A DNA stretch of 64,000 nt from a virus. A model generated the notes under the pieces. The model was not told the origin of the DNA. It ran no database searches and saw only the letters and a program-made list of their open reading frames with translations. Location of the stretch: positions 67,811 to 131,810 of the IMG/VR virus record IMGVR_UViG_3300048930_000192; one strand, given 5' to 3'. Positions 16,898-62,761 of the stretch are shown here, piece by piece. The translations under genes were made by a program, and so were the position numbers. Within the stretch, counting starts at the first letter, position 1, and each line of letters starts with the position of its first letter.

Positions 16898-17156
16898 GGC
16901 TCATCCGTAAACCTCGTGTCCGGCATTATAGTATATAGGTAGTGTAAAGTCAAGTATGGTATGTAAAATTGATGTTACCATGATGGCGGACGCGATGTTA
17001 GTACTTACTAACTAACCTGTATCTGAGATAATCACAAAAAGAGCGATATACACTTGACGTCTTCTAGCCTACGCGCTATCATTCACTGTCAACTGCAACT
17101 GTCGCGCGTCGCGTCGATCGCAAGTTGAAAATTACCCACGAAAGGGGTAAAGTATC

Positions 17157-17834
17157 ATGACCGAGAATAACAACGCCGTTGCCACCACTCCTGCCACCGC
17201 CGCCAAGAAGGGCCGCAAGCCCAAGAATGCCGCTGCCTTGCCTGATGTGCCGCCTGCCCCTGTCGCGCCTGGCGCCGCGACGCCCGAGACCCCGATCAGC
17301 AAGCCCGCCAACGTGTCGCGTCGTGACCGTACCAATGCGGGATTCGTGCTCGACCTGTGCATGATCACTGGCACTGACCCGACCGACATCGCCAATCGCC
17401 CGCAGTATATGACCCGCCCGCAGATGGAAGCCGTTGCCATCTCGAATCGTGAGCCGTGGTACGTGAATATGTGGAACAAGCAGAAGACCACCAAGCACCG
17501 CGACAAGACCATCGCCAAGACGCATGCCAACTGGTTCGACGAAGCCATGCTCGTCGATGGCAAGAAGTTCAGCCGATTCGGGATCGTGTGTGGCAAGCCG
17601 GGCCACGTGAGTTATGCCACTGTTCATGCCGGGGTGATGGTCGACCCCAAGGGCCCGACCCTGCCCGACGGGACCAAGCAGTACGACATCACCCAACTCT
17701 GGGATTCTCTCGACCGAGTGATCGCTGCCTACCCCGCGGGGACCTATGCCGAACTGAGCCAGCGCAAGCCCGTTGTCGCTGATGACTCGACCGATGAGTC
17801 TGACACCGAGACCAACGACGAGACCGCCGACTAA
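17157..17834 (+). CDS. Early protein, paralog family A copy 2
   Basis: NAGFVLDL..RPQYMTRPQM..FSRFGI..GKP..GVMVDP..LPDGTKQYD..LWDSLDRV. Confidence 0.85.
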   Translation: MTENNNAVATTPATAAKKGRKPKNAAALPDVPPAPVAPGAATPETPISKPANVSRRDRTNAGFVLDLCMITGTDPTDIANRPQYMTRPQMEAVAISNREPWYVNMWNKQKTTKHRDKTIAKTHANWFDEAMLVDGKKFSRFGIVCGKPGHVSYATVHAGVMVDPKGPTLPDGTKQYDITQLWDSLDRVIAAYPAGTYAELSQRKPVVADDSTDESDTETNDETAD

Positions 17835-17864
17835 ACCCGACAACCCGACATCCTGAATCACCAC

Positions 17865-17893
17865 GAGGGGCTGGATCGATCCAGCCCCTCTTT
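17865..17893 (+). terminator. Intrinsic terminator (near copy of 15755)
   Basis: GAGGGGCTGGAT-CG-ATCCAGCCCCTC followed by TTT. Confidence 0.8.
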
Positions 17894-18102
17894 CGGGTAC
17901 ATATACTAACCTCGTGTCCGGCATTATAGTATATAGGTAGTGTAAAGTCAAGTATGGTATGTAAAATTGATGTTACCATGATGGCGGACACGAGGTCTAT
18001 GGTTACCGATAAAATAATCGTGTGTGTAGACTTGACATCATGTTGCCATAACGCTAGAATAACTGTCGCGCATTGTCTCTCACATACACTGGAGATCGCC
18101 GC

Positions 18103-18324
18103 ATGGGCTACCGTGATCCTCGCCGTTTCGTGATTGCCGTCACCAACGTCAATGGCCGCAAGGACTACTATGCGGGTAGCCGTGATGGCCAACCCACATG
18201 GTCGAATGACCTGATCGACGCCTTCCAGTTTCGTGGCGAAACGGAACTGGATGCTGCAATCCTGCTCGCCAAGAAGCTTGGTGCCAGGGTCTATCAGCGT
18301 GGCGTGATGGTCGAGTGTTGGTAA
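18103..18324 (+). CDS. Hypothetical early protein
   Basis: GGAG RBS after promoter 18032. Confidence 0.7.
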   Translation: MGYRDPRRFVIAVTNVNGRKDYYAGSRDGQPTWSNDLIDAFQFRGETELDAAILLAKKLGARVYQRGVMVECW

Positions 18325-18366
18325 GCAATTTCATCCATCTCACGCAACCACTCAAGGAGTATCATC

Positions 18367-18591
18367 ATGGCTACCGTAAAGTCGGACCTGACCGCCGCCC
18401 GTAGGTACCTGATCGAGGCCTATAAGGCTATCAAAGATGCCAGAACCCACTGTGATGGTGTCGTGGATGTTGAAGGCATCCACTACCATGATATCACCAA
18501 AATCATGGACCAAGTCGATACCGTCGCTCGGATTTGCAAGGTCGAGCTGGATCGTCTGGATAAGGGTATTTTGACGTCCAAGGAATCCTGA
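18367..18591 (+). CDS. Hypothetical early protein
   Basis: AAGGAG RBS. Confidence 0.7.
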   Translation: MATVKSDLTAARRYLIEAYKAIKDARTHCDGVVDVEGIHYHDITKIMDQVDTVARICKVELDRLDKGILTSKES

Positions 18592-19053
18592 TATTTTCCG
18601 CTGTTTTCCGTAATTGTCGTCAAAAATCACGAAAAAACTGCATTTGGACAGCCAGGATGCAGTTTATTTTGATGGATTTACGCTCCAAAAAAACTGCATT
18701 TGGACAGCCAGGATGCAGTTTTTCACGAAAACACGTGTTTTTTGCATTTACCCCTGCTCCGCTACAGGCCAGCCCTTACCAAACATCAAAAAACTCGCGT
18801 CCTTTTGGAAATACGTGGCAATAGGTCTATAATTTTACCTCGTGTTCGGCATGTTATGTGTATGGTGTATGATAGTCAAGTATGGTCTAAAATATTAATG
18901 TTACCAATTGATGTATAATGGTAGCGCCAATGGTGGCGAACACGAGGTATGCCATTGGTATAATATATTCGTGTGCGTACACTTGACTATGATATGCCAA
19001 TCGTCTAAAATAACTGTCGCGCATTCTCTCACACGATCATTGGAGTATCCACA

Positions 19054-19320
19054 ATGACAGAGCAAGACTTCAACCAGTTGCCAGACCACATCAAGAATGC
19101 ACTCAAGGAAGCCAACATCGTGGCCATGTGCACCCACCACCGATTGAACACCGACAATAGTGGTGTGATGGGCACCACCGAAGTCCATGTTGATGCCGGT
19201 TGCTATATGCACAACACGGAACTCAAAAAGTTGGTACAATGCAATGGTTTCGTGAAAATCTGCCCGTACTATATTGGCACAACGCCATCATTGAAACTGG
19301 TCTTTTGGACCGTGGTATAA
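19054..19320 (+). CDS. Hypothetical early protein
   Basis: GGAG RBS after promoter 18983. Confidence 0.7.
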   Translation: MTEQDFNQLPDHIKNALKEANIVAMCTHHRLNTDNSGVMGTTEVHVDAGCYMHNTELKKLVQCNGFVKICPYYIGTTPSLKLVFWTVV

Positions 19321-19335
19321 AGGAAACCACCGAAA

Positions 19336-19593
19336 ATGAGCACCACCATCACTCGGCCAATGGTATGGGACGTCTATTACCACGACGACGACACCATCAC
19401 GATGGTAATGGGTATTACCAGTGATAATCGGGTCCATCTGCGGTCGATCAAAAAGTTGACGGATTACGACAACCACTTCGGTTACCATGGGTTCGACGAC
19501 GGTGGCCTCATGTCGGTCACCATGGATGAATTCCTACGAGCACTTTCACAGTCCATCATCATCAAGGTCATCAATTTGCAACTGCCATTGTGA
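19336..19593 (+). CDS. Hypothetical protein
   Basis: AAGGA RBS. Confidence 0.65.
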   Translation: MSTTITRPMVWDVYYHDDDTITMVMGITSDNRVHLRSIKKLTDYDNHFGYHGFDDGGLMSVTMDEFLRALSQSIIIKVINLQLPL

Positions 19594-19989
19594 TTTTCAT
19601 GGATTTTCACCATTTTTTTAACATATATAGGCTCTTTTTAGTTTATCCACGGTCCCTATAATGTTAGATTTTTCGTGGTTTCTACGATTTTTGTAGAAAG
19701 GGTAAATGGTATATGATGCAGATTATTGATTGCCATGGCAATCCAGTTGTCAATGGTGATATTGTACAATCACATAGCGGTAAGAAATATACAGCCATGT
19801 TCACTGATGGTGGCATTGTTTTAGAACAATCATCTACATGGTTGTATAATCCATCTAAGGGCACAGGATCAAAGCAATACGTTTCTTCTTCCTATCATCC
19901 GATCACCATTTCATTTGAAAACTTCCCCAATACTCAATGGCATAAGGTATAATCAATTTTTTGAAATAGAAAGGGCAAATGGTCCACAC

Positions 19990-20400
19990 ATGAGCATTAT
20001 TAAACTGACCGTCAACGGCGCCACCATCACAATCGACCAAACTGCTGATGGTGATACCACCATTGGTGTTAATACACAAGGGCCTACAGTCAAAACTGAG
20101 CCCGACGGTACTCATGCTATCCCAATTGTTGACGGCGGTTACTATACACCCCCTGCACAAACTGATTCAGTTGGTCCGGCATTCAGCCCTGAGCAACTAG
20201 GCAAATTGCGGGAAGTTATTCGAGCAATTGCATACGGTATCATCTATCTTGGTCCTAGTGATGGTTCAGTCGAGGACCGGCTTCGGCGCGACCGTAAACT
20301 TCAAGAGAAGTACCATCTAGAAAAGGATGCCTTAAATTGCCTGTGCAGTTTGGTTGGTGATACTTTTTATTGTGAGACCCTTAAGGATTTTAAGATTTAA
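19990..20400 (+). CDS. Hypothetical protein
   Basis: ORF in operon; start uncertain. Confidence 0.6.
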   Translation: MSIIKLTVNGATITIDQTADGDTTIGVNTQGPTVKTEPDGTHAIPIVDGGYYTPPAQTDSVGPAFSPEQLGKLREVIRAIAYGIIYLGPSDGSVEDRLRRDRKLQEKYHLEKDALNCLCSLVGDTFYCETLKDFKI

Positions 20401-20412
20401 AGGAGATTTCAT

Positions 20413-20835
20413 TTGAATACTGGAAATGTTCCGTCGGGTGATCTAGCAGGCGAATCAGCCAAGATTCTTGAATGGCTACGGTCTAGTACCCAATCGGCTG
20501 GTGATTTTGCCATTACACAGGCACCGTTGGCTGCTCAGGAATTCATTCGATGGGAAATCGTTGGTCATGGCATCACGGCAGGTTTGTATCTTATCTGTGG
20601 TATCGCCATGTTGATATGTGGCATACTTGGCCTCAGGTATTTAATGAGCGACAAAATGAATTGGGAAAAAGGCCCAAACGGCGGTTTCGCCGTGTCTGCG
20701 GTCGGTTGTATTCTTGGTTTCGCTGCGATGGTTGGTGTGTTGCCATCTGGCATCAGCGAGGCAAAGCAGTCGATCAAGGCATACGTTGCACCGCGGGTAG
20801 TGATTATTGAGAAAATCAGCGACCTGGTCCGATAA
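20413..20835 (+). CDS. Membrane protein (2 TM)
   Basis: AAGGAG RBS, TTG start, two hydrophobic segments. Confidence 0.7.
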   Translation: MNTGNVPSGDLAGESAKILEWLRSSTQSAGDFAITQAPLAAQEFIRWEIVGHGITAGLYLICGIAMLICGILGLRYLMSDKMNWEKGPNGGFAVSAVGCILGFAAMVGVLPSGISEAKQSIKAYVAPRVVIIEKISDLVR

Positions 20836-20845
20836 CTTGTTTTTT

Positions 20846-20972
20846 GCTCGGGTATCGTGGATATGGCTCACGCACGCCCTAACCGGCGTGAAGGGGTTGG
20901 CCCCCTGCGGGCGAAAGCCTTAATGACGGTTCGAATCCGTTGGTATAGTCGGTTCGAATCCGACCCCGAGCG
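20846..20972 (+). ncRNA. tRNA-like RNA with two T-loop arms
   Basis: GCTCGGG/CCCGAGC acceptor stem, GTCGG-TTCGAAT-CCGAC T arm, second ACGG-TTCGAAT-CCGT arm, 127 nt. Confidence 0.7.
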
Positions 20973-21290
20973 TTTTGACCCCTGTTTATAGATGGAATAT
21001 GGCATATGAAAAGAGAAGATCTCCTAGCTTTACTTGTTAATCGGTTATCGTCTGATTTTATTATTACTGATGTTGGTCACGGTTGGTCTAATAAGGTGAT
21101 AACAGTTAAATCTGGCACCAATCAAGTAAACCTATGGGTCGATGAAACTGGTATACGCATTGTGTGTATGTGCCCAAACCCGAAAGAATCTGGTGGATGT
21201 AATAAAGTTGTTTTACCAGAAAATGTAATCGACACCATTATTTCTCTTAAAGGGCATAAATGCATGCCTTGGGGTGGGTGATTTGTATAT

Positions 21291-21503
21291 ATGACTGATA
21301 CTAACCAACAGCCAAATAACAGGGCATTAACTCTTGAATCTATTAATAGGTCAGGATTATACACCTATTATGACGGTTGGCTAGAATATTTTGAAGGTAC
21401 GCGGTGTACCATGCTTTTAACTGCCATTGGATCATACAGAAAGCATGGCCTCAATTCTTTTGTTGACAGATCCGGTCTACCCCAACAGGAATTCCAAATA
21501 TGA
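21291..21503 (+). CDS. YxG-GxY-DxTG mini-protein family member
   Basis: YYDGW..IGSY..VDRSGL. Confidence 0.7.
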   Translation: MTDTNQQPNNRALTLESINRSGLYTYYDGWLEYFEGTRCTMLLTAIGSYRKHGLNSFVDRSGLPQQEFQI

Positions 21504-21848
21504 CCAGATACACAAAGATAGTTGACACCATCGGCAATCCGATGTGTTTGTGTGCTTATATCGACCAGCACCAATTTTGCTTCTATCACAATACTGCATG
21601 CACCATCGGCCCATTCTATTACCCAGCGGAAAACAGGCTTAGCACAGAAATTGACATTGGCCTAGCCGAATACACAGACCTTTTGATTGAAATATTACAA
21701 TCAGCCAAGGCGGCCAAACTGTAATTTTATTCGGCATCAAATTTCTTTAACGACAGTCTTGACAGTGATTTGCCATACGTCTACAATCACATGAGTGGGG
21801 CGATTCTTGTATGATTCTCACTCACCCCCCCTTATGGAGTACCTTGAA

Positions 21849-22157: not shown

Positions 22158-22529
22158 AAGGAGATACACGATGACGGCGAATTGGGATAAGCTGTGGGCG
22201 GCTGTGGCCGTCGCGTCGTTCATGGCGATGTGGGCACTGCCCTTGATGCTAGTGTTGTTAGCATGGGCGCTGCGCATGGAGTCGATTCGCGACCAGGATC
22301 GAGATTCGCTGGTCCGCGAATCGAACGGTCTATTGCGCGGAGCAGCATATGCGCTCATGGCCCTGTTGGTACTGATAGTGTTGCACATACTTTATGGAAA
22401 CTAGATATAGCCTGCCGCACTAATATTTTAACGTTATAGCTTGACAGTGAGTTGCCGTACGTCTACAATTGATTGGCGTTCGATGCACAAATGAATTTTC
22501 CGCCTCTCACTCACAAAGGAATCAGCACC

Positions 22530-23341: not shown

Positions 23342-24396
23342 GAACAGGCAACAGCCAATGTTTGTTGCCAGTAACAAATCACCAACACCGTATCGTCTGA
23401 TTGATATTAGTCAGGCTCAGGCAATGGCCGGCGATACGCCGTTGCCATTGCCCGGTTGCCGAACGGCGATCAATGTTCGCAAAACTAGAACCAGAGGCTG
23501 GCTTTATCATTTACCTTCAACCGGTACTTTCTTGTTTACCACATCAAACGAACACCGTATGATTCATGGTACTACTCAAATTATCACAAAGGCACAAACG
23601 CCAAACAAATTGCCACGAGAAGAAGCTCGGTTGCCTGCATATGTTGGCGGCCATTATCGGCCGCGATGGGATGCCGACCGCGAGGTTTGACGGTGCATTA
23701 CATTTTGACGATATCACTTGACGATGACTTACCATACGTCTACAATTGATTGGCTCTCGTTGTCTTTTCAAGAAAGGTTGATACAAGCCATGAAGATCGT
23801 CAAGACGCATAATGCCAAGATGGGTATGGTATATCAACTGATTGCCATGGACCACAAGATTCCTAGTGCATGTGTATGGTCAACCAATGATGGGCAACGA
23901 GTTGCCCTTTGTCTGATGCGCAAGGATCGGCATGGTGAAATGGCAATTTCTCGCATGATGAGTTGGCGAGAAAAGATGAGTTGGATCATGTTGGTGTGTT
24001 ACGACATTGAGAACGTGGCCAAGGCGTTGGATATTAAGCCGATTAAGGTTTGATAGCCAACCATCTGAATTTTCCTCAAAAGAAAGGTATCATCACAATG
24101 ATTAGGCAATACAAGGTTTCTAGCAATGCCCCGGGCTTCGTTGAAAAGTATCTGTGGTCTAGTTTCTACGTGGCCGAATTGGTCAAGACCATCCCAGATG
24201 GCTATACGGTCGATATCGAATACGAAGATCGGCCGATCTTGTCGGGCATCATCGGCCAGATGACGTTGCCGACGATCGCAACCTTGTATCGAGCCGTTGC
24301 AGTTGATCCGACTGTGTTGCCTGTGGTGACAGACGATGAGCCGTGCCAGATCAGCGGCAACGAAGGTGCAGTTCAGGGATAATTGCTTGTAGGCAC

Positions 24397-24938: not shown

Positions 24939-25073
24939 TATGGGTGAGTGCCGAGCACGAGGTTGATGTTATAGGCAAGTGATATTTTAATGATATCACT
25001 TGACAGTGATTTGCCGTACGTCTACAATTAATCGACTGGTCTCACACGCATACTTTATATGGAGTATCACCAG

Positions 25074-25651: not shown

Positions 25652-25736
25652 AGGCTGATTAAATTTTGCATATCGACTTGACAGTGATGTGCCGAAGTTC
25701 TATAATTTTGTACGCACTCTCTGGAGATCAAAGACG

Positions 25737-26096
25737 ATGATTAAGATCCTTTTCCTTGACGACGAAGCAGCCAGGTTTGACGTTTTGGTAAAGAATCTTG
25801 GTGATAGTGCCCAATGCCGTCATGTGAAGGACGGGTTTGAATTTCTTGAGGCTCTGTGTGATTCCAAATATGATGTTATCATGTTGGATCATGATCTTGG
25901 CCTCTGCGATTTCACTGGTGTGGATGCAGCAAAGATTCTTGCCTGCGCACCAGAGAATCTGAATGATCACCAACTGGTAGTTGTTCATAGCATGAATGTT
26001 TGCGGCGCCGACAACATGATTTCACACATGAGGAACTCGCCGCATCTTAGGATTCGCAAGATGCCTGGTGCATGGATGAAGAATTTTCTTGGATAG
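25737..26096 (+). CDS. Stand-alone receiver-like protein (cyclic-phosphate-processing receiver type)
   Basis: ILFLDDE..MLDHDLG..TG..VHSMN..GA.NM signature. Confidence 0.8.
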   Translation: MIKILFLDDEAARFDVLVKNLGDSAQCRHVKDGFEFLEALCDSKYDVIMLDHDLGLCDFTGVDAAKILACAPENLNDHQLVVVHSMNVCGADNMISHMRNSPHLRIRKMPGAWMKNFLG

Positions 26097-26311: not shown

Positions 26312-29300
26312 TTGTTCGTGACATTACCGTTAGGAAGATTTGCGCAATTGTTTGAAAGATACCTTAAACAATGGCTGGTTATTGATAGTGGTACTATTGT
26401 TTTCTATGATGGTGCCATTGTATTGTTAAATCTACATATGTATAGCCCAAGAGGCAGAATTCATGGTGGTAACGGTAGTAAATGGTATGACGAAACCGGA
26501 ATAGAGTATGGTACCTAAGAGGTCGGTTCATCTTCAATGGATTTGTTATGAAGAACCAGATGGCCGTTGGTTCTCAGACATATGGTACCTTGGAGTAATT
26601 GTTTTTTGTGTGCCAGCACGTGGTTTTGAAAGTGATGGTAGCTATGACCTTACCACTGCTGAATATGACGATACTGGGCTACTGATAACATGACTGACAG
26701 GATAATAGGATCATCATACATTTATTACATAGAGCCGGGTGCCAGGCGGCCTGCTAGTGGGGTTATGGGATACAATGGCACCATAACATATAGTAATCTT
26801 ACTTTTTGGAATACAGGTCAATATAATTTTGGCCGCGACGTATTTTCGCCAACAGGAATAGAATTGTGAGTACCCGCATATTATATTATTTCATTTGGTG
26901 CGACGGCCAAAGTCTATGGTACACAGGCAATATAGACCGGGGTGATGACACCCATCATGAAAGCGGTAGTTACGATTTGGGGTTCAGACATTTTGACCGA
27001 ACAGGATTAATATTATGAGAACGAGGGAGATTCAACTGGATTGCATGAGAATCATACTCGGTGAATATTTCACATACTATATTATATGGTATGATGGCGA
27101 TGTAGATTTCGGCACTTATGGGCTTGCTCATCGGGGCGTTAGTTTAAATTTAAGCCCAGTTGGAGCATATACCATTGAACACTTCGTAGATCAATCTAGG
27201 CTATGTGTTAATGCCGATGGGTCTTAATATTTTGGCAATAATAATTTTGATATATCGACTTGACTGCGACTGTCCAGATGTCTATAATTTATGACAAGGA
27301 GATCTGCGATATGGATAAGTCATACCACGAAGTTCACGATGATGCCGATTGTATCGATGATCTGCCAGAGCTGACGGCAGAAGAAGCCAATATCATCGAA
27401 CGGCAAATCGATGGCCTCTATGAAGGTCCTGTGTTCCAACGGAAACTTGAGGCCTATTATGAAAGAGTCGGAAATCAGGATAGTTGACTACCGCAAAATT
27501 GCCAAGCCACACATCAACATACTATATGGCGGTGATATCATTCATCGGTCAAGAGTATTCCTACATGCATCCGGCGAGTATACCACATTCGACTCATCGG
27601 CTGCGGTCACATCAGATGGAAGTGAATTAGAATGGCCAAAGAAACCGTTATAGAATACTACTGTATTGTCTTTGGCGGCCCGGGTAATAATACATGTGTT
27701 GCATTTTATCACGGTGAGGCCAGGTGTCTATGGGGCTACTGGTTATGGGACACCGGGGCATATTATGTCAATTACAACAAAAATCGGACGCCAGTGGTAT
27801 TTTACGATGAAACGGGGTTACAACAATATGAATAGGTCAATATTTGCTACCAATATAATTTTGTGGCATCCAAACGGATATCGAGATGTTAGATATAATG
27901 GCAGTGTCACCAACCAGAAATTCTGGCTGTGGGAAAATGGTTCATACTATGTTTACCGTCACCCGAATGACACACCCTGCTTTACTGTGTTTGATGCAAC
28001 AGGAGTCTATATATGAATAATCCCGGAAACAAGCCTGTGCGCGTAGTTTGCCCGCGAGAAATCGTTAGGTATTATGATGGCGCTCGCGACATCATAAGCT
28101 ATATTGGTACCATTAATACAACTGGCAATTTTCTGCTTTATAGTATCGGATCATATAATCTCTACGACCGACCCAACCCCAAAATTATGGTAGAAAGAAC
28201 CGGCGAATATATTGATGCGAGATATTGAAATGGATCAACAAATTACCAGGTTATTAACCGACATAAGCATAGAAAATTTCCAAACCAACACCGAAATCTA
28301 TTATACTGGGTGTATTTTAGACAGGGAAAAAATGCTTTGGACTATAGGTGATTATTATTTTCGTAAGTTGGTTATAGATGAAACCGGATATATCGACCAT
28401 GACCACTACGATCAGCGTTTTTAAGATTAGACATATATTTTCAGTTAACGGCATTAACTATGCTATTGGCACAAGTGGTAATGACAGTTGGTGGCGAGAG
28501 CGATGCGGCACACCACGGTCACTATTGCGTATATCTACTAAGGTGGATGGAATTACTTCACCAGAGTATTTTGTTGAACCGACGGCGTTAGATGATACAG
28601 ATAAAGAGGCTATTAACTTCTCCGGTTTGGTATCACACAGGGATTAAACATGGTCACCGAAATCACCAATGAAAACAAGATGCGCCCCGACTTCAAGGGT
28701 GGGCATGGCTATCGGCAACCTGGCTTCTATGACAAGCATGGTAAGAGGGTCGGCGAACGTGGTTGGATGACCTGGGACGAATCTGTTTACACCAAGCCGT
28801 TGCACAGGATCCTTGGTTACAAGAAGCGCGCCACTCTGCGAGATCACCGTGTTGGATAATCAACAACACCAAATTCGTACAGTTGGCGATAGTCGGATAG
28901 AATATCATCTTCCAGCTAATGGTTGGTTCACCGCCATCTTTAGTTATGATGGTAGAATTAGTGTTTATGATTTATATTTATCAGTTAATGATTTATATTT
29001 ATCAGTTAATGGCTCATATACTTGCTATGCCAAAGATGGGCTATCAATTGATATAGACGAAACTGGTCTAGATTTGATATAGACGAAACTGGTCTAGATT
29101 TTTCGTGGGACTAGGTAACATGCCAGAACGGTTGATAAACTCATATTATATCGAATATAAAGAAAATAATACATACACATTATGCATTGGGTATGATGGT
29201 TATATCGGTCCTAAAGCACGCACTAAGTTTATGTTTAATGATGGTAGCTACCAGTATATATTAATCGACGAGATACTTTATTGTAACGCCACAGGATTAT

Positions 29301-31226: not shown

Positions 31227-31327
31227 TACCGCATCGCAATCATCGACTTGACAGTGACTTGCCACAAGTCTACAATTTGTTCGAGCGATCATCGATCTTT
31301 AATAACCGAATGAGTTGATAGTATAAT

Positions 31328-33023: not shown

Positions 33024-33121
33024 TGGCATAAAGAAAAATTAGCGTTTGACTTGACGACAATTTGCCATAAGTCTACAATTGATCGACGCGAACTCTATAT
33101 GGCACTCGAAAGGAAACTGGC

Positions 33122-35848: not shown

Positions 35849-36115
35849 AGCAACTCAAAGAGTGGTGGCGGCAGTTCTGTGACGACTGGCAAGTGAGTGC
35901 GATGTTGGCCGACGAAATGGAAGCTCAGCGGCTATGCCGATTAGACAAGCCGGCAAAGCCCATCGAGATCGTGCTGACAATCCGACTAGACGCGGCCAAG
36001 CCGCAGGAGAGAGAAAAGTGATCGATACAAGGCATCCAATGATAAATAATGACTCTGTGACTTGACTTTAATTTGCCATACGTCTAGAATTGACGTAGAG
36101 AAAATGCAATTGAGT

Positions 36116-37709: not shown

Positions 37710-37988
37710 TCCAGATACTCGTCATCCCTATGATAGTATGCTGGTTTGGTGGTATCGTAATGTGGGTTATTGCCTCAATTGTTGGCGGTGATCGACCAGA
37801 CCAAACCAGAGCTAATACTATCGGTAATGTGTTGATGATAGTGTGTGGTGTATGTGCATTGTGTGCGGCTTTTGCCGGTGAATTTAGGTAAACCAGTTAT
37901 TAAAATCGTTGTCTTGACTTGACTTGACTTTGATTTGCCGTGCGTCTAGAATTGTCTGTAAGAATTTGTTATCTATGACAAGTGAATA

Positions 37989-39391: not shown

Positions 39392-39525
39392 CATACCTCG
39401 TACTCGGCTCACCGTTGATAAATAACAATCTCACTAAATGGCATGGCAAGATAAATTTTGATTTGACAGTTGACAGTGAATTGCCATAACGATATAATTT
39501 GTTGTCAATTAGCATAGTATTAGTA

Positions 39526-41448: not shown

Positions 41449-42286
41449 GGTGATTAGGTGGTATACAGCACGTTTTAAGTCTCATATGAACTCCTTTGAT
41501 ACACTTTGATTATACGTCATCCGGTCTAGGATCTCAAGTTTCGTCAATCGTAGATAATAATTGTATGTTTGCCAGTGCCAAATTTATCAATCTGGATTTT
41601 CTTTGTCATCCTAATCCCGAACCTGGTCTGTATACCTATCACAAATTAAATGCGGGGTTGCTTATATATTGCATTAGCGGCGACCTTGAAGCACAAATTC
41701 ATTATTTTTCTGGCTGGAAGAATTTTCAAGACAATAAGGTATTCCTAAACGACCCAATTGTAGAAATTGATATAAACCACTACATTAGATACTCATATAC
41801 CTTCATTGAACGGTACAATAAAGATATCGTATATTACATCGACGGTATTCAAGTAAATCCTGGAAAATTGATATATGGAATTTTACCATAATATAAATCA
41901 TAACACCGCAAATAGTTGCATTTATACTATTATGATTAATAGGCCCATATTTATTGTAAACACCCTTATTATTAGTGTGTTTGTAAATTGTTTCGATAAT
42001 TATACCGACTATAGTAATTTTATTGATATATATGGCAATAAAAATAACTTTGAAAGAATTACACTAGACGAATATATCAAACTCACCCACAAGTTATATT
42101 TGGATGGCATAAAAACTAATAGTTTAAGATGCTGTGGTGGGCTTGGCGTCGAAATACATTCACCAATATTGAGAATATCTCAATTGAAAACTTGACGATG
42201 ACTTGCCGATTGAGTATAATTATACGTCGATCATCGCGCGTTGTGATGGTCAAATTGTGATTGCATGTTTATATGGAGTATCGATA

Positions 42287-42781: not shown

Positions 42782-43154
42782 AACAAAAATTAAAACTGAA
42801 TATGCCAATACGGCGTGATTAACTTTGCGCCGTATTATTTCCCGAATTTAACTTTAACGGAGAATATATGAGTCACGGTCAACGTGCGGCATATAAGAGC
42901 AATCACCAACGCGAAGTTTGGAGTCGCAGAGCAGACTCTAGGTTTACTGGTTGCAGAAATGGCCGATATGTGAAAACTGAAACCCATAGGCAAGAGCGCC
43001 GAGAAGCCAGAATTAATCTCAAAAAGCACGAAGATTGATCCTCGCAGTCGGCAACTGGTAACAATAAATTGAGTCGTTTATCTTGACTTTGATTAGCCGT
43101 AAGTATAGAATTATTCGTGCGATAGATTCTAAACGCCTTTAAAGGATTCATTAA

Positions 43155-43448: not shown

Positions 43449-44278
43449 TAAAAAATGAGTGACAATTATCGCAGAGCCGGGCGATGTTATATCGAGAGAT
43501 ATAACACCATTCGCAAATCATATCAGGGTATTATTACTTACGTTGGTGGTGCGAAAGTAAAGAGGCAAAATAAGGATTTGCCAACATCACTTGGGATCAA
43601 TGGGGTGCCGTTTTCTATGGTAAACAAATGCATCGCGATGGTGCGATCACCTCTTTGTATCATGCAAGGCGCCACGGTCTAAAACGGAATGTTAATACCC
43701 GTCATATTCTTAGAACCTCTGAAATTGTAACAAATAGAATTACTACCGTACGTGCCTATAATGGCACAGAACGACATCATTACGAAGCCCTGAAAAAGAG
43801 AAGGGGCAAACCTTCTAAGATCGGTAATGATGGGCGATATTTCATTCCCAAGATAGTAATTATGCCTGATGGCATTTCTCGACCGGTCAGATCAAATACA
43901 GAAAGGACAGACAGAACATGGCTGCAAACACATTGGTAACGGTAGATAACTATCCATCACAGAAGTATGTTTTGCTGGATTCAAATGCAAATGGCACCGT
44001 GCGCATCAATGGTCTTGCCTCGCACGAAGAAGCAATCATCCTCATCTTCAAAGCCGGTGATGGATATTATGGCTGCACAGCCGACGATATCGTTTATGTT
44101 GGTGCGCCCATTGATGACGATGGTGGTGATGATCTCGAATTTGTTGGTGTTGGAATTCTAGAGTCTCTTGTCGAATGACAAAAGTTTGTGTCAAAACTTG
44201 ACGCGAGTTTGCCGTCAGTGTATAATTTCAAGTCGTTTTGTTCACGCAATATCTGTGGATTGAAAAGGAGTATCAAGA

Positions 44279-48842: not shown

Positions 48843-50329
48843 ATGAATAGAACCATAATATCAAATGCTATTGCCAGATCGAATGACAAGGGAGCAATTA
48901 TCCTGTGGATCGAATATTCGGGTAAGATTGACGGGAACAGAGTATGGGACCCAAACATTTTAAAATACCTCGATTTCCATGAGAATGGGTCGTATGATAT
49001 AGATTCTGTGGTGTTTGTTGATCCAACGGGAGTAGAGGATAGATGAATAATCTAATAGAAAAAAGAACTATTAATTGGGCGAGTATTCATATACGATACA
49101 AGTTGAATTATAATTTGTTCATATATTACAATGGTCTTATTACTAATTTCCCAAAATATCCAGATTTTAAAATTGACGGATCATATGAGTTATACAATTC
49201 TTGTAGCCCCATTGGAATAATACAATATGACGAAACCGGATTATAATAACCCCAAAATAGATATTGGATATTATTTAATGTCTAGATACGACAATGACGG
49301 GTATGTGAAGATGTATTTTTACTACAACGGTGAATTAATATTAACCCCTTGGCAAACAAATTTTGGCGAAGACGGTGGATATTATTTCGACGGCCTTCAA
49401 TACTTTGAGTTCGATGAAACAGGGATACCAATATATGAGTAAATCTAAACCACATAAGTCATTTTTAATGACTCCCATTAAAAATAAAATGCGATCTAGA
49501 ATTTATTATGATGGATGTATACTTGTTGAAACACGAGAAAAATCTGTATTGGATATCTATAGATTTAAGGAGTATGGTGTGAGTGGCGAATATGGTGGTT
49601 GGAAAACGCCATGGGTAACTGAAACCGGGTTAACAGGGTTCTAGCACCATTATATGGGATTCAATATATATGAGTAAATCTAGAAAATGTAAAGAATGGA
49701 TTAATATAACTGTAAATAAACATATAACTAGAATTTACTATGATGGATCTCATTGGGGGTTTCTGTACGTCGCCACGGGCGATCCACTAGAGTGTTATTT
49801 TGATAACGATGGGAGATATTGGATCATGGGAAAATCCATTGATGAGACTGGGCTATGAAAACTAATGGCATAATAGGATGGCATTCAATATTTAGATCAA
49901 AGAGGGTTACCAAATGAATTTTAGGTCACTTACATCGATTTCAATTTACAATTCATGCGGATCTTTCCTGCACATTTACTATGACGGAAGTATATCGGCC
50001 CGTGGTTGCAGTGGTATTTTTTATGAGGATGGTGGATATCTATCCAATAATTATTATTTTAATGAGACAGGTCTATGAAAACAAATACTAAACTTACTGA
50101 CTGGATCATTATAACTTCTTTTGGTACATATAAAGTCATCCTCGAATACAACGGCAGTATACTGCACTTTTTTACTAAACTGGCATCAAAAGAAGAAAAA
50201 CTAAATTACAATGGTATAAAAATAGCGGAATCAGATGGTGAATATTATATGGTAAATTGCTCAGTCGATTCAACCGGAATTATAGACCAGACCTATAGAG
50301 GTCGATTAAAATTCGATGACTTGACTTGA
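48843..50329 (+). CDS. Second array of 7 mini-protein genes (48843, 49043, 49227, 49435, 49670, 49914, 50075)
   Basis: All with YxG..GxY..(D/T/N)xTG. Confidence 0.85.
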
Positions 50330-50392
50330 CTAGATGATGCCACGAAGATATAATATCTCGAATCGCGTAGTTTTCACGAATCGTATAAATGA

Positions 50393-50669: not shown

Positions 50670-51650
50670 ATGAGCCACATCAATCAAATCTCAAATTCAT
50701 GGCGCCGTCTAGTTGGCACCAATAAAGTGCTTCTGATGGTTTCTGGTGGCGTAGACAGCATGGCTTTAATGGAAACCGCATTACGAGCCAATGTTGACTT
50801 TGAGGTGTTGCATATTACCCATGATATGCGACCTGCAAGCGAAACTGATAATGACCGAAAGATCGTGGAAGAATATTGTGCCGACCACGATGTTCCGTTT
50901 CATAACATTGCCGTTACAAGTGAATCCAAGACTGAAACAGATTACCGCAATCTTCGAGTAAAGGTAATCTGTGATCTTACCAATGAACTTGGCATCAAAT
51001 ATGTTGCCACTGGGCACCATTCAGATGACCAGATTGAAACCATTTTGATGAAGATTTGTCGAGGTTGCGGCCTTGAAGGCCTGAGTGGCATTGCAGAGAC
51101 CTCAGAATATCCGACCGTTGATCCGCAATTTACATATGTTCGGCCACTACTGAATACTCCAAAATCTGTTCTTATTGATATTTGCCTTGAAAATAATGTG
51201 CGATGGCACGAAGATGTTACCAACGCAGATGCCGATATTACTCGGAACGCGATTAGAAACAAGGTTGTGCCACTACTCAAGCAATTGTACCCTGGCATTA
51301 ACTCTGCATTTAATAACATGGCTGACAATTCTCGAATGGCACTTGACCATATTACCAATGAAGTATCTGAATATATTGCCTCGCAATTAGACGAATATGG
51401 CTCTGGCTGCTTTGACCGCAAACAGCTAAAGGCCAAGAGCGATTGCTTCATTCGGTATTGGCTAATTGGTATTCATAGTCATAATAGCTATAATGGTATG
51501 GACAAATTGAAGAAAACGTATACTATGGAATTCATCAAGTGTATTAAATCAACCAAAGTAAGGAACACTGTAATGAGATATGGTAATTGCGAAATGTTCT
51601 TTGCCAGAGATAAGATTTACGTTATTGGTCAACCGCATAATCAAAAATAA
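50670..51650 (+). CDS. tilS: tRNA(Ile)-lysidine synthetase
   Basis: VSGGVDSMAL PP-loop, TGHHSDDQIETILM..RG.GL.GL.GI, VRPLL, W.ED.TN..RNAIR. Confidence 0.9.
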   Translation: MSHINQISNSWRRLVGTNKVLLMVSGGVDSMALMETALRANVDFEVLHITHDMRPASETDNDRKIVEEYCADHDVPFHNIAVTSESKTETDYRNLRVKVICDLTNELGIKYVATGHHSDDQIETILMKICRGCGLEGLSGIAETSEYPTVDPQFTYVRPLLNTPKSVLIDICLENNVRWHEDVTNADADITRNAIRNKVVPLLKQLYPGINSAFNNMADNSRMALDHITNEVSEYIASQLDEYGSGCFDRKQLKAKSDCFIRYWLIGIHSHNSYNGMDKLKKTYTMEFIKCIKSTKVRNTVMRYGNCEMFFARDKIYVIGQPHNQK

Positions 51651-53616
51651 AGATATAATTATCGTGCGTAACGATTGATGTAGACTTACCACAAGTCTAC
51701 AATATATCACGTTCGTATAGACAAAAGCGAGACAAAATATGCCAAATGACTTTTTCAGCCGTGAAAATCTTGAGAACCTTGAAAAAAGGCCACATCTGCC
51801 AACAGAAGAGGAATTGGAAGCTTCTATTGAGGATCCAAAGAACACTGTTCTTAACCTTATTGGCCATATGGTAGACAATAAAATGTTGGCTTTTAAGTTG
51901 GATGTTGACACCAAGAGGTTTGACGAAAAGGACACCATGAGGGTGATTGTTCTTGGTGTCAAGGCCCTCAAAAATGTATTGTATCGCCTCGGTAAGGAAA
52001 ATGATATTTCCAAAGAAGAAATTGATGCCATTATAGATGACGATTCTAATGGTGGCATGCACTTTATCTAAAAAGAGATATAAAATGAAAAGACCAAAGT
52101 TAATTTTTGACATGGCTAAAATGTCTGGTATAAGTGCGCCTATAGATTATTCTGAACACCGATCAATTACTGCTGCCGACTTGGTAAAATTAGACAGAAA
52201 AATCAACCAACCGATGATTTATACCACAACTACAGCCACAATATATAAAAATCAATCTCAATCGCATATGGTCGAAGAAAATTGTATTCTTAAAGTTTAC
52301 ATAAACGACAAACAATCCCGAATTATTCTGCACTGTAGAAGGCCTTGTAACAACAAACATGCTACTGCCGGCTATTACTATAATGACCGAATATTTGAAA
52401 TAGCAAAGACAGACCATTTGTCGAGAACACTTAACCGAGCAGGCCAAACTCTTCGGTGCAGACTTAGTTGCTTAAATGGCACAACTTTTGAATATAAGCG
52501 GTCTAAATTTACTGAATGTACCACTGAAAGTGTTAAGTTTATGTTTGGTAAAGCATATATGATTATATAAATATCGTAATGAAATCCAGACTAGAAATAA
52601 TTAAGGCTCTTTTACGAAAACAAAGTTTAGAAAAAATGAAGTCTACCGGTATTACACGGTCTAAATCTTGGGGTGGTAAACCAACCGCCAAGAAAGATCG
52701 AGTTTCGTCCAAGAAGAATCTTCGGTTCAATTCATAGGAGTATGTGTGTTGTATACTAATAAGTTTGAGGTCGCTACCCAAATTACTCGTTCGTATACCG
52801 CAGTTACTAAATCTGGGCACGAAATTACTGTGCAAGCACCAGCATTGGCTTCTGCTCAGGAAATCTTCAAGAGTAAGATGCCTGCATCTATGATTTTGCG
52901 CATTAAAGATAACAACGGTAAAGTTGTTTGGCGCAACAGTCACCTAATGTGACGCATTTGAGAGGAACTTAGATAATGCCGTATTATGTTTGCTATAATG
53001 AGAATGAGAATGGATATTGGAATAGGTCAATGGGGTGGGTGCAATATAGATTGGCAGACCATTATACTGCGATGGAAGCAAGAAATAATGAGCCGCCTCA
53101 TGGTGGCGTTTGGATTCTTGTAAGTGAAGCCGCAAAAAATGAAACTCCATAATTGTGTGGAGTTTGTTTATTGGTGTTTAAATTATGGAAAATAATGTTT
53201 TCGATGTGTCGGAATTATTTCGAGGCGTGGTAGAGGTGCATGATACTCCAATGCAATATGTTAAAATGTTAGTTTATAATAACAATACCACGTCTATTGT
53301 TATTCTTAACAAGTCAGGCCAACTAAATTACTTTTCGCCAACAGCAGATGCTATTTTGCCAACTTTGGCTGACCCGATTCTTTTGTCGTCAAGCGGCGAA
53401 TGCTGCGGGGGATCAGCAGATATAACCAATAATTATACCGAATTCATTGAATGTTGGTCTAACAACAGCCAAAAGTTTAATGATATTATAATGTCGTAAA
53501 GATATGGTCTAACTTATATTAGACGATCGACTTGACTTGAATATGCCAAGTCGATATAATATTTTGCGTACATTCTATCGACTAGCTGTAAACTTTCCCA
53601 ATCAGAGGTTTGGCAT

Positions 53617-55242: not shown

Positions 55243-55667
55243 GTTATGAACGGCATAAGTTATTTTGATAAATGATCTTGACTTGAATTTGCCAATCGTC
55301 TATAATTTTCTGTGAATTTCTCGAAACTCTTTAATTTGGAGAAGCCATGATTTACAACGGCGATTTCCCAGTCAATGTCAAGATGCCGATTCGCAATAAG
55401 GAAAAGGCTGCAATGAAAGTCGGACCGACTTTCAAGAAGATTGACCTTCTTGACCTAGAAGCAGAAGCAGAGGGCAATGCTATTCGCCGAATGAAAACTT
55501 CATTCAGTAGTGGCAATAATCCTGTTCTTGGTCGTCGCCTTGTTCGTCAGGGTGTCAAAGAGAGCCGCGGGCGAACGATGGTTGGCAATAAGAGAGTTGT
55601 GAACCTTACCAAAGATCACAACGCTGCGCGTGAAAAGTATATCATTGGCTCCGAATAAGGAATTAAA

Positions 55668-56603: not shown

Positions 56604-56615
56604 AAAGGAGATATC

Positions 56616-58136: not shown

Positions 58137-59068
58137 AATATCACGGCTCAAATTATAATTTGAGCGTTCGCTTGACTTGACTTTACCAATCTGATATAAT
58201 TATGTGTCAGATCAAATTTTGTTAGAAAGAGAACACATGGAAATCAATATTGTAGGCGCGTTTATTGACGAAATTGGCATTGAACTAAACAATATTTCTA
58301 ATATTGTTGGCCCGGAAAATGTTACTGTAGACCAGATTTACTCTACTCCCGATTTGGTTAATCCAGAATACTGGCACGATCAAATCCTGATGGAACTAAA
58401 TGGCAATCAAACTCGATTGGTTCTTGAAACCGTAGCCTCTACTAAGTATCACGGATCTAATATTCCAGGTGAAACTTTTGTTAAAACGATGTTAATGGAA
58501 TTGCAAGATTGTGATCCTAAGATGTGGGGTCAGATTATTTCTAGTAGCTATCTTAGCAAGATTTATACCGACACAGTTGGAGTATAAAGAATGTCGGAAA
58601 AATTGGATCCAGTGCAGTTGACGATTGCAACCAGCAATGTAGTTGCCAGTAAAAATGGTAGTATCTATGAAGCAATTGCAAGTGCTGCCATGCAGAGTAA
58701 GAAACAAGAGGAATTAAACAAAAAAGCAGCCGCAGAACTTATTGATAAAATACCAGAAATGTGTAGGGTTGCATCTGGCAAAGGCGAATGGTCTATTCGA
58801 GTGTGTGCCGCAGAGGGTAGTTTTTATTCTACTGGCAAGTCTCACCCAATATGCGGTGGTATATATTATGGCACACCATGTGGTTCAACCACAATGGTAT
58901 ATGATTACTGCGTGGCTATCTTTGGTAAACTAAGAACTTTCTTTACCCGTGTTGACGGCGAATACTATCTAAATGTTACATGGGCAGAAATTACAGATGA
59001 GCAATTAAAGAATTTGGATAAATCGAATGATCTACCTAACAGCTGATTCGCATTTTGGGCACTAAATC

Positions 59069-59102: not shown

Positions 59103-59108
59103 AAATAG

Positions 59109-60553: not shown

Positions 60554-61082
60554 TATAATGCCAGTATCAAAATCAGATGAAGTAATACCGATTGCAGAAG
60601 TTATTGAGAATTTTATAAATTCTTTGCATCAAAGCGGTGCATCTACAGATCAAATTCTAGAAGGTGTAATTCGGGCATTTAATAGTCGTGACGGCATTTT
60701 AGTTACGTCCAATCTAGACGATAATGCTAATATGCAAGAATTGGCGTATAAAGTCGAAAGTGATTTGGTGAAAACTCACCAAGATTTGGTAAATTATTCG
60801 CGTCAAGAAATTTCTGGATAAAGGAGATATCGTAAATGGTTGATATCTATGAAGGGTTAGATCCTGGTGCAACCGTGGCACAATCGGTCAGCCATTGTTC
60901 TAATCTGCAATGGCGCCAGCACAATGGTGAAACCAAAAAGTTGGCCAATTTAACTACTACACACCTAAACAACATTTTGGCGTATAGGGCTAGGCACAAG
61001 TCTCGAAATCTGCCGGGTGGTGAACGGCGTAATGTAATGGCTATGGCAATCTGCATTGAAATTTATAGGCGAAATGGAGTTT

Positions 61083-61658
61083 TTAATGAATATCGATAAT
61101 AGTATTGGCCCAGACGAACGAATTGCTAAAGTGTTTGAGCCTGGTCTACATTTGATTGGTAAAAGTGTTAGGAGATGCATTATCTCTGGATTTATTGGCG
61201 TATGTTTGGGGATTTTTGGATTTGCGTATGGCTCATTGGCATTTGTAGATGGTAGCAATATTGCAATTGTTATAATGACAGTTGCGGCAATGTTAGCTGT
61301 TGCTAATGCTAATATTATATCCAAGAATCTTTATGCCCGAAAGGCGTTTAATAAAGATTTTGCGTCTATGGCTTTGCCTGAAAAGATGCAATATATCGGT
61401 GAATACATTCCGTATGCGCATAAAATTCGGCATGCTGAATTGGTAGAAAGTATAATTTGTTTTGGTTTCTTTGCTACAATGCTTGCATTTTTTGCCAATG
61501 CAGCAATATATGATCTATCTACCAATAATATACTTTCGGTAATTCTCTGCATTGCTACCGTCTGTTTTAATGCCTTAACCATAAAGTTTAATAAAATGTC
61601 GTTGGATCTTTCTGATATGGTTTGCCGTCATTGGAATGAGTATTTGAAATATAAATAA
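61083..61658 (+). CDS. Multi-TM membrane protein
   Basis: Four hydrophobic segments; start approximate. Confidence 0.6.
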   Translation, partial: LMNIDNSIGPDERIAKVFEPGLHLIGKSVRRCIISGFIGVCLGIFGFAYGSLAFVDGSNIAIVIMTVAAMLAVANANIISKNLYARKAFNKDFASMALPEKMQYIGEYIPYAHKIRHAELVESIICFGFFATMLAFFANAAIYDLSTNNILSVILCIATVCFNALTIKFNKMSLDLSDMVCRHWNEYLKYK

Positions 61659-61721
61659 TCAGTCGATGACTTGACTTCGATTTACCATACGTCTACAATT
61701 TACTGTCAACAAATTCACTTT

Positions 61722-61793
61722 GGCCCTGTCGTCTAGAGGCTAGGACGCTGAGACTTTCAATCTTGGAACATGGGTTCGAGTCCCATTGGGTCA
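61722..61793 (+). tRNA. tRNA-Glu (UUC)
   Basis: TCGTCTAGAGGCTAGGAC D arm; TGAGA-CTTTCAA-TCTTG; imperfect acceptor stem. Confidence 0.8.
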
Positions 61794-61850
61794 CTTTGGT
61801 CGCATCAATGAAACCCGCAGTAATTCATTGTGTAAGACGGCCATTTCAAT

Positions 61851-61922
61851 TGCCGTGTGGCGTAATCGGTAACGCGCGGGGCTTTGGTCCCTGAGTCCAC
61901 GGATCGTAACCGTGCATGGCTG
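61851..61922 (+). tRNA. tRNA-Gln (UUG), atypical T loop
   Basis: CGGGG-CTTTGGT-CCCTG; CACGG-ATCGTAA-CCGTG. Confidence 0.8.
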
Positions 61923-61928
61923 TTTGTA

Positions 61929-62017
61929 GGATAGGCGACGCACATCGGTGAGGCGTAAAGGATTGCTAATCCTTCGTATCTGAAAAGGTACTGCTGGTTC
62001 GACTCCAGTTCTATCCG
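61929..62017 (+). tRNA. tRNA-Ser (GCU)
   Basis: AAGGA-TTGCTAA-TCCTT; long variable arm; G73. Confidence 0.88.
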
Positions 62018-62027
62018 CTTTCTTTTT

Positions 62028-62093
62028 GGGCTAAGAAGATCGGCACTTGTCACGACACAATGCAAGTTGGTGGTTCGAATCCATCCAAGCCCA
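62028..62093 (+). pseudogene. Degenerate tRNA
   Basis: GGGCT/AGCCC ends and TGG-TTCGAAT-CCA T arm; D and anticodon arms broken. Confidence 0.55.
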
Positions 62094-62761
62094 CTTTTTA
62101 ATTATCTTGTGCATCACTTGACTTTGATATGCCGTTTATCTACAATATGTTAGATTGTAGATCGAGAACAGCTATATTGGTGTAAATAGTTTTGGAGATA
62201 TTATGCAATACGTGAGCCGCACCGTCGACCATGGTGGCAATTCATTTGAAATGTTTTATGATGTTATTGGCAATAAGTTGATTCTAAAGGACGTTATTCC
62301 TCAAGAACGTGGTACAAGTCTTCCAGACGACATCGCCAACCAGTTTCATCAAGAAACCGTTGAATCTATGTCAACTTATGGCAAGATCGACCCGTCAAAT
62401 GCCGAAGATATGATTTATGTTAGTGCCTTGGCTGATAAGGGAATTGTCATCATTGATGATCCCGACGACGAAGAAATCGAAGATTAAAGGAGATAATTTC
62501 ATGGCTCGATTTTATGATCCTGATAATGTTGTTGATCCAGTGGATCTAAACGATCTCGATGGATATGACTTCCTTGATAATATCGCAGAAGAATTTGACC
62601 GAGAGTGTAAGAAAGTTCCAGACGTTGATGTTGTGGACGAGGAAGATGCCGATCACGAGGAATCGGATCAAGAATAATTGATATCAGTCTTGACTTTTGA
62701 TTGCCGACTCGATAGAATTGATACGCAAATTTCTCTATCACAGTAAAAGGATTTAGATAAA

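Follow-up and report, generated by a model that had tools for sequence, protein, structure and literature searches.

A fixed mid-spacer CC, and the exclusion of CC/GG around it, in the predicted early promoters of an uncultured T4-like phage

The question raised by the DNA considered here, the right-hand 64 kb of the linear 131,810-bp IMG/VR virus record IMGVR_UViG_3300048930_000192 (positions 67,811 to 131,810; CheckV completeness estimate of the record 72%), is why its predicted early promoters hold two bases fixed in the middle of the spacer. The spacer between the -35 and -10 boxes is usually seen as sequence-neutral, save for weak effects near -18 and a loose Z-element. In this stretch of 64,000 nucleotides, called the window below and used for all coordinates unless genome coordinates are stated, promoter after promoter carries CC at one and the same spacer position, and the DNA around this CC is cleared of every other CC and GG to an extent that composition does not account for. 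In what follows we describe the rule, ask which known promoters come nearest to it and weigh what might impose it.

It is noted first that the pattern TTGAYN-N8-CC-N7-TANNAT (that is, TTGAY-N9-CC-N7-TANNAT) has 31 exact matches in the window, whereas in 100 dinucleotide-preserving shuffles it occurs 0.11 times on average and never more than once. The matches consist of 25 sites on the plus strand, from 17054 to 62718, of the minus-strand sites at 13626, 15843, 16953, 17951 and 18879, and of one more at 7792 on the same strand; all but the last had been named in the original prediction, and all of those named are present. Because a logo made from sites selected on the CC is circular, the promoters were recounted with a scan blind to it, which asked for an exact TTGAC, 17 bp of spacer and no more than one mismatch to TATAAT. 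Of its 30 matches in the early region (from genome 81,400 on), 27 have CC at positions 15-16 from the first T, which corresponds to -21/-20, the exceptions being 14910 on the minus strand, with CC at 14-15 and 17-18, and 15034 and 15943 on the plus strand, the former with none and the latter with GG at 14-15. In the rest of the contig the CC is found in 3 of 7 such matches, including a divergent pair at genome 57624/57638. In the logo of 33 sites, a set that was selected on the CC, the CC is fixed and the other spacer positions hold 0.1-1.0 bit; the consensus of the class reads AC-TTGAC-ttTGAtTTR-CC-rtacGTC-TAnAAT, with an A/T-rich, UP-like tract at -21..-11 before the -35 box.

The same rule is met in a close relative, the contig IMGVR_UViG_3300020576_002511 (G002), which is 70-90% identical to the present contig (G000) in the syntenic parts: there, CC is present in 19 of 19 CC-blind matches, with the reversed control pattern giving 0 matches. 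Between nine orthologous promoter pairs of the two contigs 38 of the 144 variable spacer positions differ (26%) and 0 of the 18 CC positions do (P = 0.004). The leftward promoters keep the CC although their spacers are otherwise unlike the rightward consensus. As an outside control, a metagenome collection was searched with 19 consensus bases, leaving positions 14-20 free, and of the 23 distinct unrelated matches only 1 has CC at 15-16; in G001, a remote relative with 38% protein identity in a neighbouring gene, it is found in 2 of 11 matches. The CC, present in only 1 of 23 controls and 2 of 11 sites of G001, is therefore neither a by-product of the remaining consensus nor a general trait of such promoters. 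Comparison of the sequences thus establishes the rule itself, selection on it and its specificity to this lineage and this promoter class.

It is also noted that a further promoter family with a conserved spacer, TTGACC-AAnAATT-CCC-AATTTGC-TATAAT, belongs to an unrelated phage group seen at three loci on other IMG/VR contigs (L040, L041 and L058), where many copies, not all, have CC near 14-16; the pattern used in that search required CC, and the sample is biased accordingly.

The second part of the rule concerns the DNA around the fixed CC. For this part positions are counted from the first T of TTGAC, and the flank counts refer to 29 promoters, the leftward type followed by GCCGGAC being left out. 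The surrounding DNA had been predicted to be GG/CC-depleted in general, which it is not, as the odds ratio for GG/CC is 1.00 in the genome and 1.02 in the window; the depletion is a local zone of about -22 to +50. At -22..0 there are 4 CC/GG versus 27.7 expected, at +30..+50 there are 8 versus 42.6, and at +51..+71 the count is normal (42 versus 46.0); inside the 29-mer, with the dinucleotides touching the fixed CC left out, there are again 4, versus 27.7 expected from position-specific base frequencies. In ten-base bins the picture of depletion in G000 is matched by that in 13 promoters of G002, 12 of which have no CC/GG besides the fixed CC between -20 and +50. The nearest other CC/GG lies at a median distance of 40 nt upstream and 45 nt downstream, giving a median span of 85, to be compared with a genome-wide median of 21 and a 95th percentile of 63, and the two intervals of about 100 bp in which the CC had been said to be the only GG/CC, 44154-44256 and 51635-51741, are exact. 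Within the cleared zone CG is enriched, meaning that G and C are used there, but not as homodinucleotides.

With a start site assumed about 7 nt downstream of the -10 box, the zone extends roughly from -56 to +14 (about 70 bp), a length equal to that of an RNA polymerase footprint. The original expectation that GG/CC would be avoided where RNA polymerase binds is in agreement with this predicted extent, and so is the expectation that exactly one site is kept, as a single CC is retained at a fixed place on a fixed strand. On its upstream side the zone is closed by GG at -26..-24 in 18 of 33 promoters, and exactly 40 bp before the CC in 14 of 33; this edge GG often lies within GGCA (for example at 33026 and 55253), with the GG and the CC inverted about a centre near -41.

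The clearing was compared with several control sets. The 23 unrelated promoters have 2-3 times more CC/GG in each sub-zone, and the four promoters of G001 that were examined carry 7.25 CC/GG per zone. As the T4-type TATAAATA has only 7 occurrences, the control with late promoters was built on 14 ATAAATA sites upstream of open reading frames (ORFs), and these candidate late promoters, a noisy set, show no depletion. There is no flank depletion, either, at the four leftward promoters that are followed by GCCGGAC (15843, 16953, 17951 and 18879). Moreover, the region +30..+50 is essentially without sequence conservation and is cleared nonetheless, so that ancestry cannot explain the clearing there. 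Finally, among the differences between G000 and G002 those creating CC/GG number 16 in the zone versus 42.3 expected (ratio 0.38), and in the flanking DNA 56 versus 81.3 and 141 versus 204.3 expected (ratio 0.69), that is, they are rarer in the zone.

As to what kind of promoter this is, the sequences place the elements, in about 33 copies, among the sigma70-type, PeSL-like early promoters of phages, with an extra, lineage-specific spacer element. The -35 box is TTGAC in 31 of 33 sites and TTGAT in 2, the 17-bp spacer and TAnnAT are present in 33 of 33, and position 27 is A in 31 of 33. On the plus strand 17 of the 25 sites lie no more than 200 nt before the start of a called ORF, and of the other 8, 4 are followed by tRNA genes; the cassettes are interspersed among small early genes and tRNA genes. 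Cassettes of the PeSL (promoter-early stem-loop) kind in T4-type phages were reportedly described by Arbiol in 2010 (PMC2839356). They are portrayed, in the part of one account available, as early sigma70 promoters close to consensus, with an A/T-rich region upstream, which lie between small variable genes and serve as recombination points (Comeau 2014, PMC4122927). The present elements resemble them in the A/T-rich upstream tract, in the repetition of near-consensus promoters in hyperplastic regions and in belonging to a T4-like phage, and also in that insertions, deletions and swaps between close relatives have their breakpoints at promoter edges (22153->22469, 31277->21832 and 25030->21799, in 1-3 runs each). 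With regard to the stem-loop, hairpins are seen on inspection at some copies (for example, upstream of 55278 and 23718) and not at every copy, no systematic folding having been made. The present elements differ from PeSLs in their spacer, since the PeSL promoter is given as TTGACA-N17-TATAAT and the available part of that account mentions neither a conserved spacer base nor a dinucleotide exclusion (PMC4122927); similarly, the available part of a report with logos of T4-like early promoters does not mention a conserved mid-spacer base (PMC1524935).

The recombination just described leads to one rival explanation, namely, that the rule has no function and that all the cassettes descend from one ancestral copy with a single CC, having been kept alike by PeSL-type recombination and gene conversion. 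The contigs of related strains do join at promoter edges, at the three joints given above, as PeSLs do in the portion of the account at hand (PMC4122927), and mutual information between positions shows that promoter subfamilies exist. If this were all, however, the spacer positions next to the CC would not be expected to have diverged by 26% between orthologues with the CC unchanged, nor the leftward promoters, with otherwise unrelated spacers, to keep it; the unconserved +30..+50 region would not be cleared as well, and the substitutions in the zone would not avoid creating CC/GG more than the flanking ones. We consider this explanation extremely improbable.

Other known elements that might be thought of do not fit. 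An extended -10 element is not seen, positions 21-23 being G/T/C (in 18, 19 and 21 of 33), which gives GTC instead of a TGn with TG at -15/-14. Nor do the sites look like operators of a dimeric repressor, because the longest inverted repeats in the 29-mers do not exceed those in shuffles and there is no symmetry centre. A sigma54 promoter on the opposite strand was discarded on inspection, since, although TGGCAA occurs, the -12 GC is off the required spacing. A second -35-like box, TTGCCA, 11 bp after TTGACA, lacks a conserved -10 box at the right distance. CRP, IHF, Fis and LexA-type sites were rejected by eye only.

The nearest known spacer element is the Z-element of the T7A1 promoter, AACCT, which has been mapped to -22..-18, is sensed through the beta' zipper and acts via Y47/R48 of beta' with the enzymes of E. 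coli, T. aquaticus and B. subtilis, as far as the available part of the report goes (PMC3173786). With the -10 hexamer at -12..-7, the CC at -21/-20 falls within -22..-18, and AACCT, a spacer element of the T7A1/T7A2 type, itself contains CC. By contrast, the sequence here is CC(A/G)(T/A)(A), not AACCT or AACAT, and the CC of T7A1 lies 2 bp downstream when the hexamers are aligned. Single substitutions in the Z-element are described in the same source as having effects of less than 2-fold, and its consensus is called loose (Yuzenkova 2011, PMC3173786), whereas the present element has two invariant bases, accompanied by the exclusion of that dinucleotide throughout the footprint. In the available portion of a study of the Thermus aquaticus open complex there is no protein-DNA contact from -29 to -18, with zipper residues reaching the -17 phosphate (PMC4593229), and R451 of E. 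coli sigma70 is reported to sense -18 (PMC3130263, from the section available).

These comparisons bear on the possibility that the rule stems from the host RNA polymerase itself or from the shape of the DNA, GG/CC steps, which are rigid and A-philic, being selected against where the DNA wraps or bends in promoters of maximal strength. This possibility accounts naturally for a cleared zone that matches the footprint of about -56 to +14, and the CC is located within the window of the T7A1 Z-element as mapped in the material available (PMC3173786). It accounts less well for a CC that is displaced by 2 bp from that of T7A1 and for two invariant bases in place of a loose element with effects of less than 2-fold, and the open complex, so far as that report could be drawn upon, has no contacts at -29..-18 (PMC4593229). 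Moreover, unrelated consensus promoters and the distant relative do not follow the rule, and the GG/CC-free gene discussed next would be left unexplained. We regard an origin in the polymerase or the DNA shape as unlikely.

The three leftmost rightward promoters, which we call class I, do not have the fixed CC; each has a TATACT or TACACT -10 box followed by TATGTGTC. They are P1 (13987..14014, plus strand, TTGACT-N16-TACACT), read in the sequence and in the CC-blind scan and having no CC or GG, and P2 (15034..15062, plus strand) and P3 (15943..15971, plus strand), both TTGACA-N17-TATACT and both from the CC-blind scan, P2 with no CC and lying within a 142-bp gap free of CC/GG, and P3 with GG at 14-15. 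This is as the original prediction had it, with the first two rightward promoters lacking the CC and the third having a GG one base earlier. All the rightward promoters after these carry the CC (class II). Of the two-tier early cascade that had been suggested, what stands is the presence of two promoter classes by sequence, three without the CC and the later ones with it. Taken as a whole, that interpretation is borne out in part, for the avoidance in the footprint, the fixed CC, the two classes and the GG/CC-free unit, and fails for the general depletion.

P1 opens a transcription unit (13981..14815, plus strand) that is made up of this promoter, a gene of about 221 amino acids and a terminator, and that has zero CC and zero GG over 835 bp at 51% G+C; the next longest CC/GG gap in the contig is 142 bp. 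The unit is located immediately to the right of the divergence point between the leftward replication genes and the rightward early genes. All other dinucleotides are present in it, CG at 2.07 times expectation, and its G+C is the highest locally; on these grounds a mutational loss of CC, such as by APOBEC-like editing, was rejected. In this record the gene is frameshifted; relatives have one more A at 14345, and their gene encodes one protein of 218-221 amino acids. Gly, Pro and Trp are absent from two homologues, of which one is only 61% identical, and two others have one or two Gly; in addition, 0 of the 16 variants listed for the unit create CC/GG. The homologues free of Gly, Pro and Trp, together with the variants, indicate that the ban is kept by selection in the lineage, and the reading of CC/GG in this system seems, to judge from this unit, to go beyond promoters too. 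For the product, which had been suggested as the phage factor that might recognise the CC, no Pfam family and no Atlas neighbour was found, and an AlphaFold model from 4 sequences has a mean predicted local distance difference test score (pLDDT) of 49.6, only a C-terminal helical hairpin being confident.

Just upstream of the unit lies a CC-rich 14-bp tandem repeat, ACCACCACCACCGT, in about 4.5 copies (13741..13815, with no strand assigned), a variant of which occurs in run X6. The repeat is flanked by two direct copies of a sequence of about 38 bp (13690-13880), in the gap between the divergent gene blocks, and this repeat region may, from its arrangement, be an origin or a binding array.

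A ban over an entire unit could be understood if CC/GG were the site of a covalent mark, that is, if a phage enzyme, for instance a beta-class methyltransferase, modified CC/GG in virion DNA, the promoters that have to work on injected DNA avoided the mark under the polymerase and the one marked site in each promoter acted as a switch between virion and new DNA. The contig has two genes for beta-class N6A/N4C DNA methyltransferases, one at 31981-32643 (minus strand), antisense inside the rightward early array, and one at genome 60783-61415 (plus strand). As the step is avoided on both strands, a feature of the duplex is indicated, and clearing is absent from the candidate late promoters, whose template is replicating DNA, in accordance with such a mark. 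However, both methyltransferases resemble the adenine-specific enzymes CcrM/YhdJ, with scores below the curated cut-offs, and in the 72%-complete contig no gene for a C5-methylase, for a thymidylate-synthase-type or dCMP hydroxymethylase-type enzyme or for a TGT/DpdA-type enzyme was found. The 7-deazaguanine modification was rejected, as the 'QueC-like' PHROG match is a PP-loop/TilS-type protein and the TGT family was not found. Furthermore, most early genes are rich in CC/GG and must still be transcribed, and over the whole contig, on both strands, six-base sites are strongly avoided (CTGCAG with 2 versus 54.9 expected and AACGTT with 4 versus 46.5), which is unexpected for heavily modified DNA. 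On balance a covalent mark appears improbable to us.

The same site avoidance, to which CTCGAG (2 versus 23.6 expected) and GGCC (0.60 of expectation) are to be added for the whole contig, is of the classical restriction type and suggests that the rule might be one of defence evasion, with the multi-copy cassettes purged of CC-type/NGG-type CRISPR protospacer adjacent motifs or of short restriction or nicking sites, and with the GG/CC-free gene likewise shielded. It is true that the cleared zone coincides with the repeated cassette. Nevertheless, evasion predicts the loss of every CC, yet one is invariant; the clearing reaches into +30..+50, which is not repeated; and the shielding of a few percent of the genome leaves cutting elsewhere. 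This makes evasion very unlikely as the cause.

We now return to what might read the CC. In T4 middle promoters the MotA box is located at -30, in place of the -35 box. To our knowledge, and as far as our literature search goes, no factor reading -21/-20 has been described. That phage factors bound to the host RNA polymerase sort promoter classes is reported for gpT5.026 of T5 (PMC7472727) and for gp39 of a Thermus phage (PMC3950348), in the parts of these papers at hand. The present case resembles T4 AsiA/MotA, gpT5.026 and gp39 in that the phage would divide sigma70-dependent promoters by a short extra sequence feature; it differs from T4 middle promoters in that the consensus -35 box is kept, and in that AsiA/MotCF has no match at E <= 1 in the contig, which is 72% complete.

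Based on these observations we tentatively favour, at somewhat less than an even chance, the reading that the CC/GG step is recognised by a factor in the polymerase-promoter complex, for which the single CC would be the docking point and the clearing would block engagement elsewhere. The step would be read on duplex DNA inside the complex, by a reader separate from the parts of sigma that read the -35 and -10 boxes, most likely an accessory protein from the phage or the host that is carried by RNA polymerase. The one CC that is kept, at -21/-20 of the non-template strand, would occupy the sole part of the spacer not covered by the polymerase, and there it would act as a point of docking or registration; the absence of contacts at -29 to -18 of the open complex, on the evidence of the section of that study available (PMC4593229), makes a separate reader there plausible. 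The clearing of CC/GG on either strand from -56 to +14 would keep the reader from engaging elsewhere under the polymerase. The CC promoters would then be one jointly controllable set, and the three CC-less promoters and the GG/CC-free gene would escape the control. It is to be noted that we infer the existence of the reader, its identity and the direction, on or off, in which it would act.

Several points weigh against recognition by such a factor. No reader has been found, the contig having no AsiA, no MotA C-terminal domain and no sigma70 region 4, and the early genes tested are mostly without a family. Two base pairs with weak neighbours (TTR before, R after) and no dyad symmetry are very little for a DNA-binding protein. 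A cleared zone of footprint size would be explained just as well by the polymerase sensing the step on its own. The expected values are composition nulls, and the promoter subfamilies correlate neighbouring positions (as seen from mutual information), which probably inflates the 27.7 expected for the 29-mer. As the rule is seen in two genomes only, which are 70-90% identical, it is effectively one lineage. The promoters and the start sites are predictions, and the comparison promoters are those of the relatives and of a metagenome collection.

A more general form of the same idea can also be considered, in which there exists a general reader of duplex CC/GG coupled to bacterial RNA polymerase, and phages ban the step under the polymerase, put one copy of it at a fixed position so as to register or switch the complex and omit it from their first genes. 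We hold this wider form to be possible, on the unlikely side.

The individual promoters are distributed as follows, a motif match being the basis unless stated otherwise. On the minus strand, a CC-type promoter, TTGACA-N17-TAAAAT, is ahead of the leftward replication-gene block (7764..7792; motif match and CC-blind scan), and one with a TTGATC -35 box is the first leftward promoter at the divergence point (13598..13626). Further on, between 14880 and 18900 of the minus strand, five leftward promoters lie inside inverted repeats between early genes: the one at 14882..14910, from the CC-blind scan, is the only off-register case, its CC being shifted to 14-15 and 17-18, and the CC-type ones are at 15815..15843, at 16925..16953, at 17923..17951, with a 29-mer identical to that at 16953, and at 18851..18879, with a TAACAT -10 box. 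The latter four are followed by GCCGGAC(A/G)CGAGG, run into the hairpin of the upstream gene and have no Rfam match; a scan of 13500-21800 against Rfam gave no match with a convincing score. Judging by this arrangement, these four may have short antisense or small RNAs as products.

On the plus strand, the first CC-type (class II) promoter is at 17054..17082, followed by those at 18032..18060 and 18983..19011. At 21759..21787 the recombination joints of relatives end just beside the promoter, and at 22441..22469 the deletion joint 22153->22469 (runs X1, X6 and X7) ends at its last base. The promoters at 23718..23746 and 25000..25028 come next, the latter with the joint 25030->21799 in X7, then those at 25678..25706 and 27260..27288 and the one ahead of tRNA-Met at 31248..31276, with the joint 31277->21832 in X1 and X6. 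Membership in an orthologue pair adds to the motif match at 33051..33079, 36062..36090, 37924..37952, 39470..39498 (ahead of tRNA-Leu), 42192..42220, 43083..43111, 44198..44226 (whose CC is the sole CC/GG in 44154-44256), 50326..50354 (ahead of tRNA-Ile) and 53532..53560. The promoter at 51675..51703 has a TTGATG -35 box, and its CC is the sole CC/GG in 51635-51741. The remaining ones are at 55278..55306, 58172..58200, 61671..61699 (ahead of a tRNA-Glu/Gln/Ser cluster), 62118..62146 and 62690..62718. Among the neighbouring genes, that at 25737-26096 encodes a small early protein weakly resembling two-component receiver domains, with E values of about 5e-5 to 7e-5 that fall far short of the curated cut-offs, and that at 50393-51650 a PP-loop (TilS-type) ATPase, directly after the phage tRNA-Ile gene and behind a CC-type promoter.

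By its genes the source is an uncultured, distant T4-like phage. The gp23 capsid gene, a T4-like mark, is at the start of the contig, and the family-B (T4-type) DNA polymerase is split into two adjacent ORFs of 426 and 467 amino acids (735-3418, minus strand) that overlap by 1 base at their ends; its best named relatives are only about 45% identical (at most 45% in the protein and distant DNA searches). The contig also carries NAD-salvage genes and ten tRNA genes, and AG/CT is low in the window (0.82). A near-identity DNA search among named phages gave 0 matches, the phage collection having no close named relative, and related contigs occur in metagenome runs of wastewater, sludge and freshwater. 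Four scans of collections yielded one close and one distant contig among the matches listed, one of the scans giving mostly single chance matches. A scan of genome contigs for a clue to the host gave 14 single matches, by estimate about the chance level, none of which points to a host.

As to what the finding means, the predicted promoters as such, sigma70-type and PeSL-like, are of a kind already known; what sets their sequences apart is the invariant mid-spacer CC together with the exclusion of CC/GG over the footprint, of which our literature search found no description. In about 50 promoters of two genomes, two bases in the middle of the spacer carry information equal to that of the -35 and -10 boxes. 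If they are read by a factor, a phage would have a novel means of telling its early promoters apart from those of the host, or of switching a whole class of them at once, and transcription initiation would be the first functional handle on the GG/CC-free early gene units. The rule is directly testable with short synthetic promoters.

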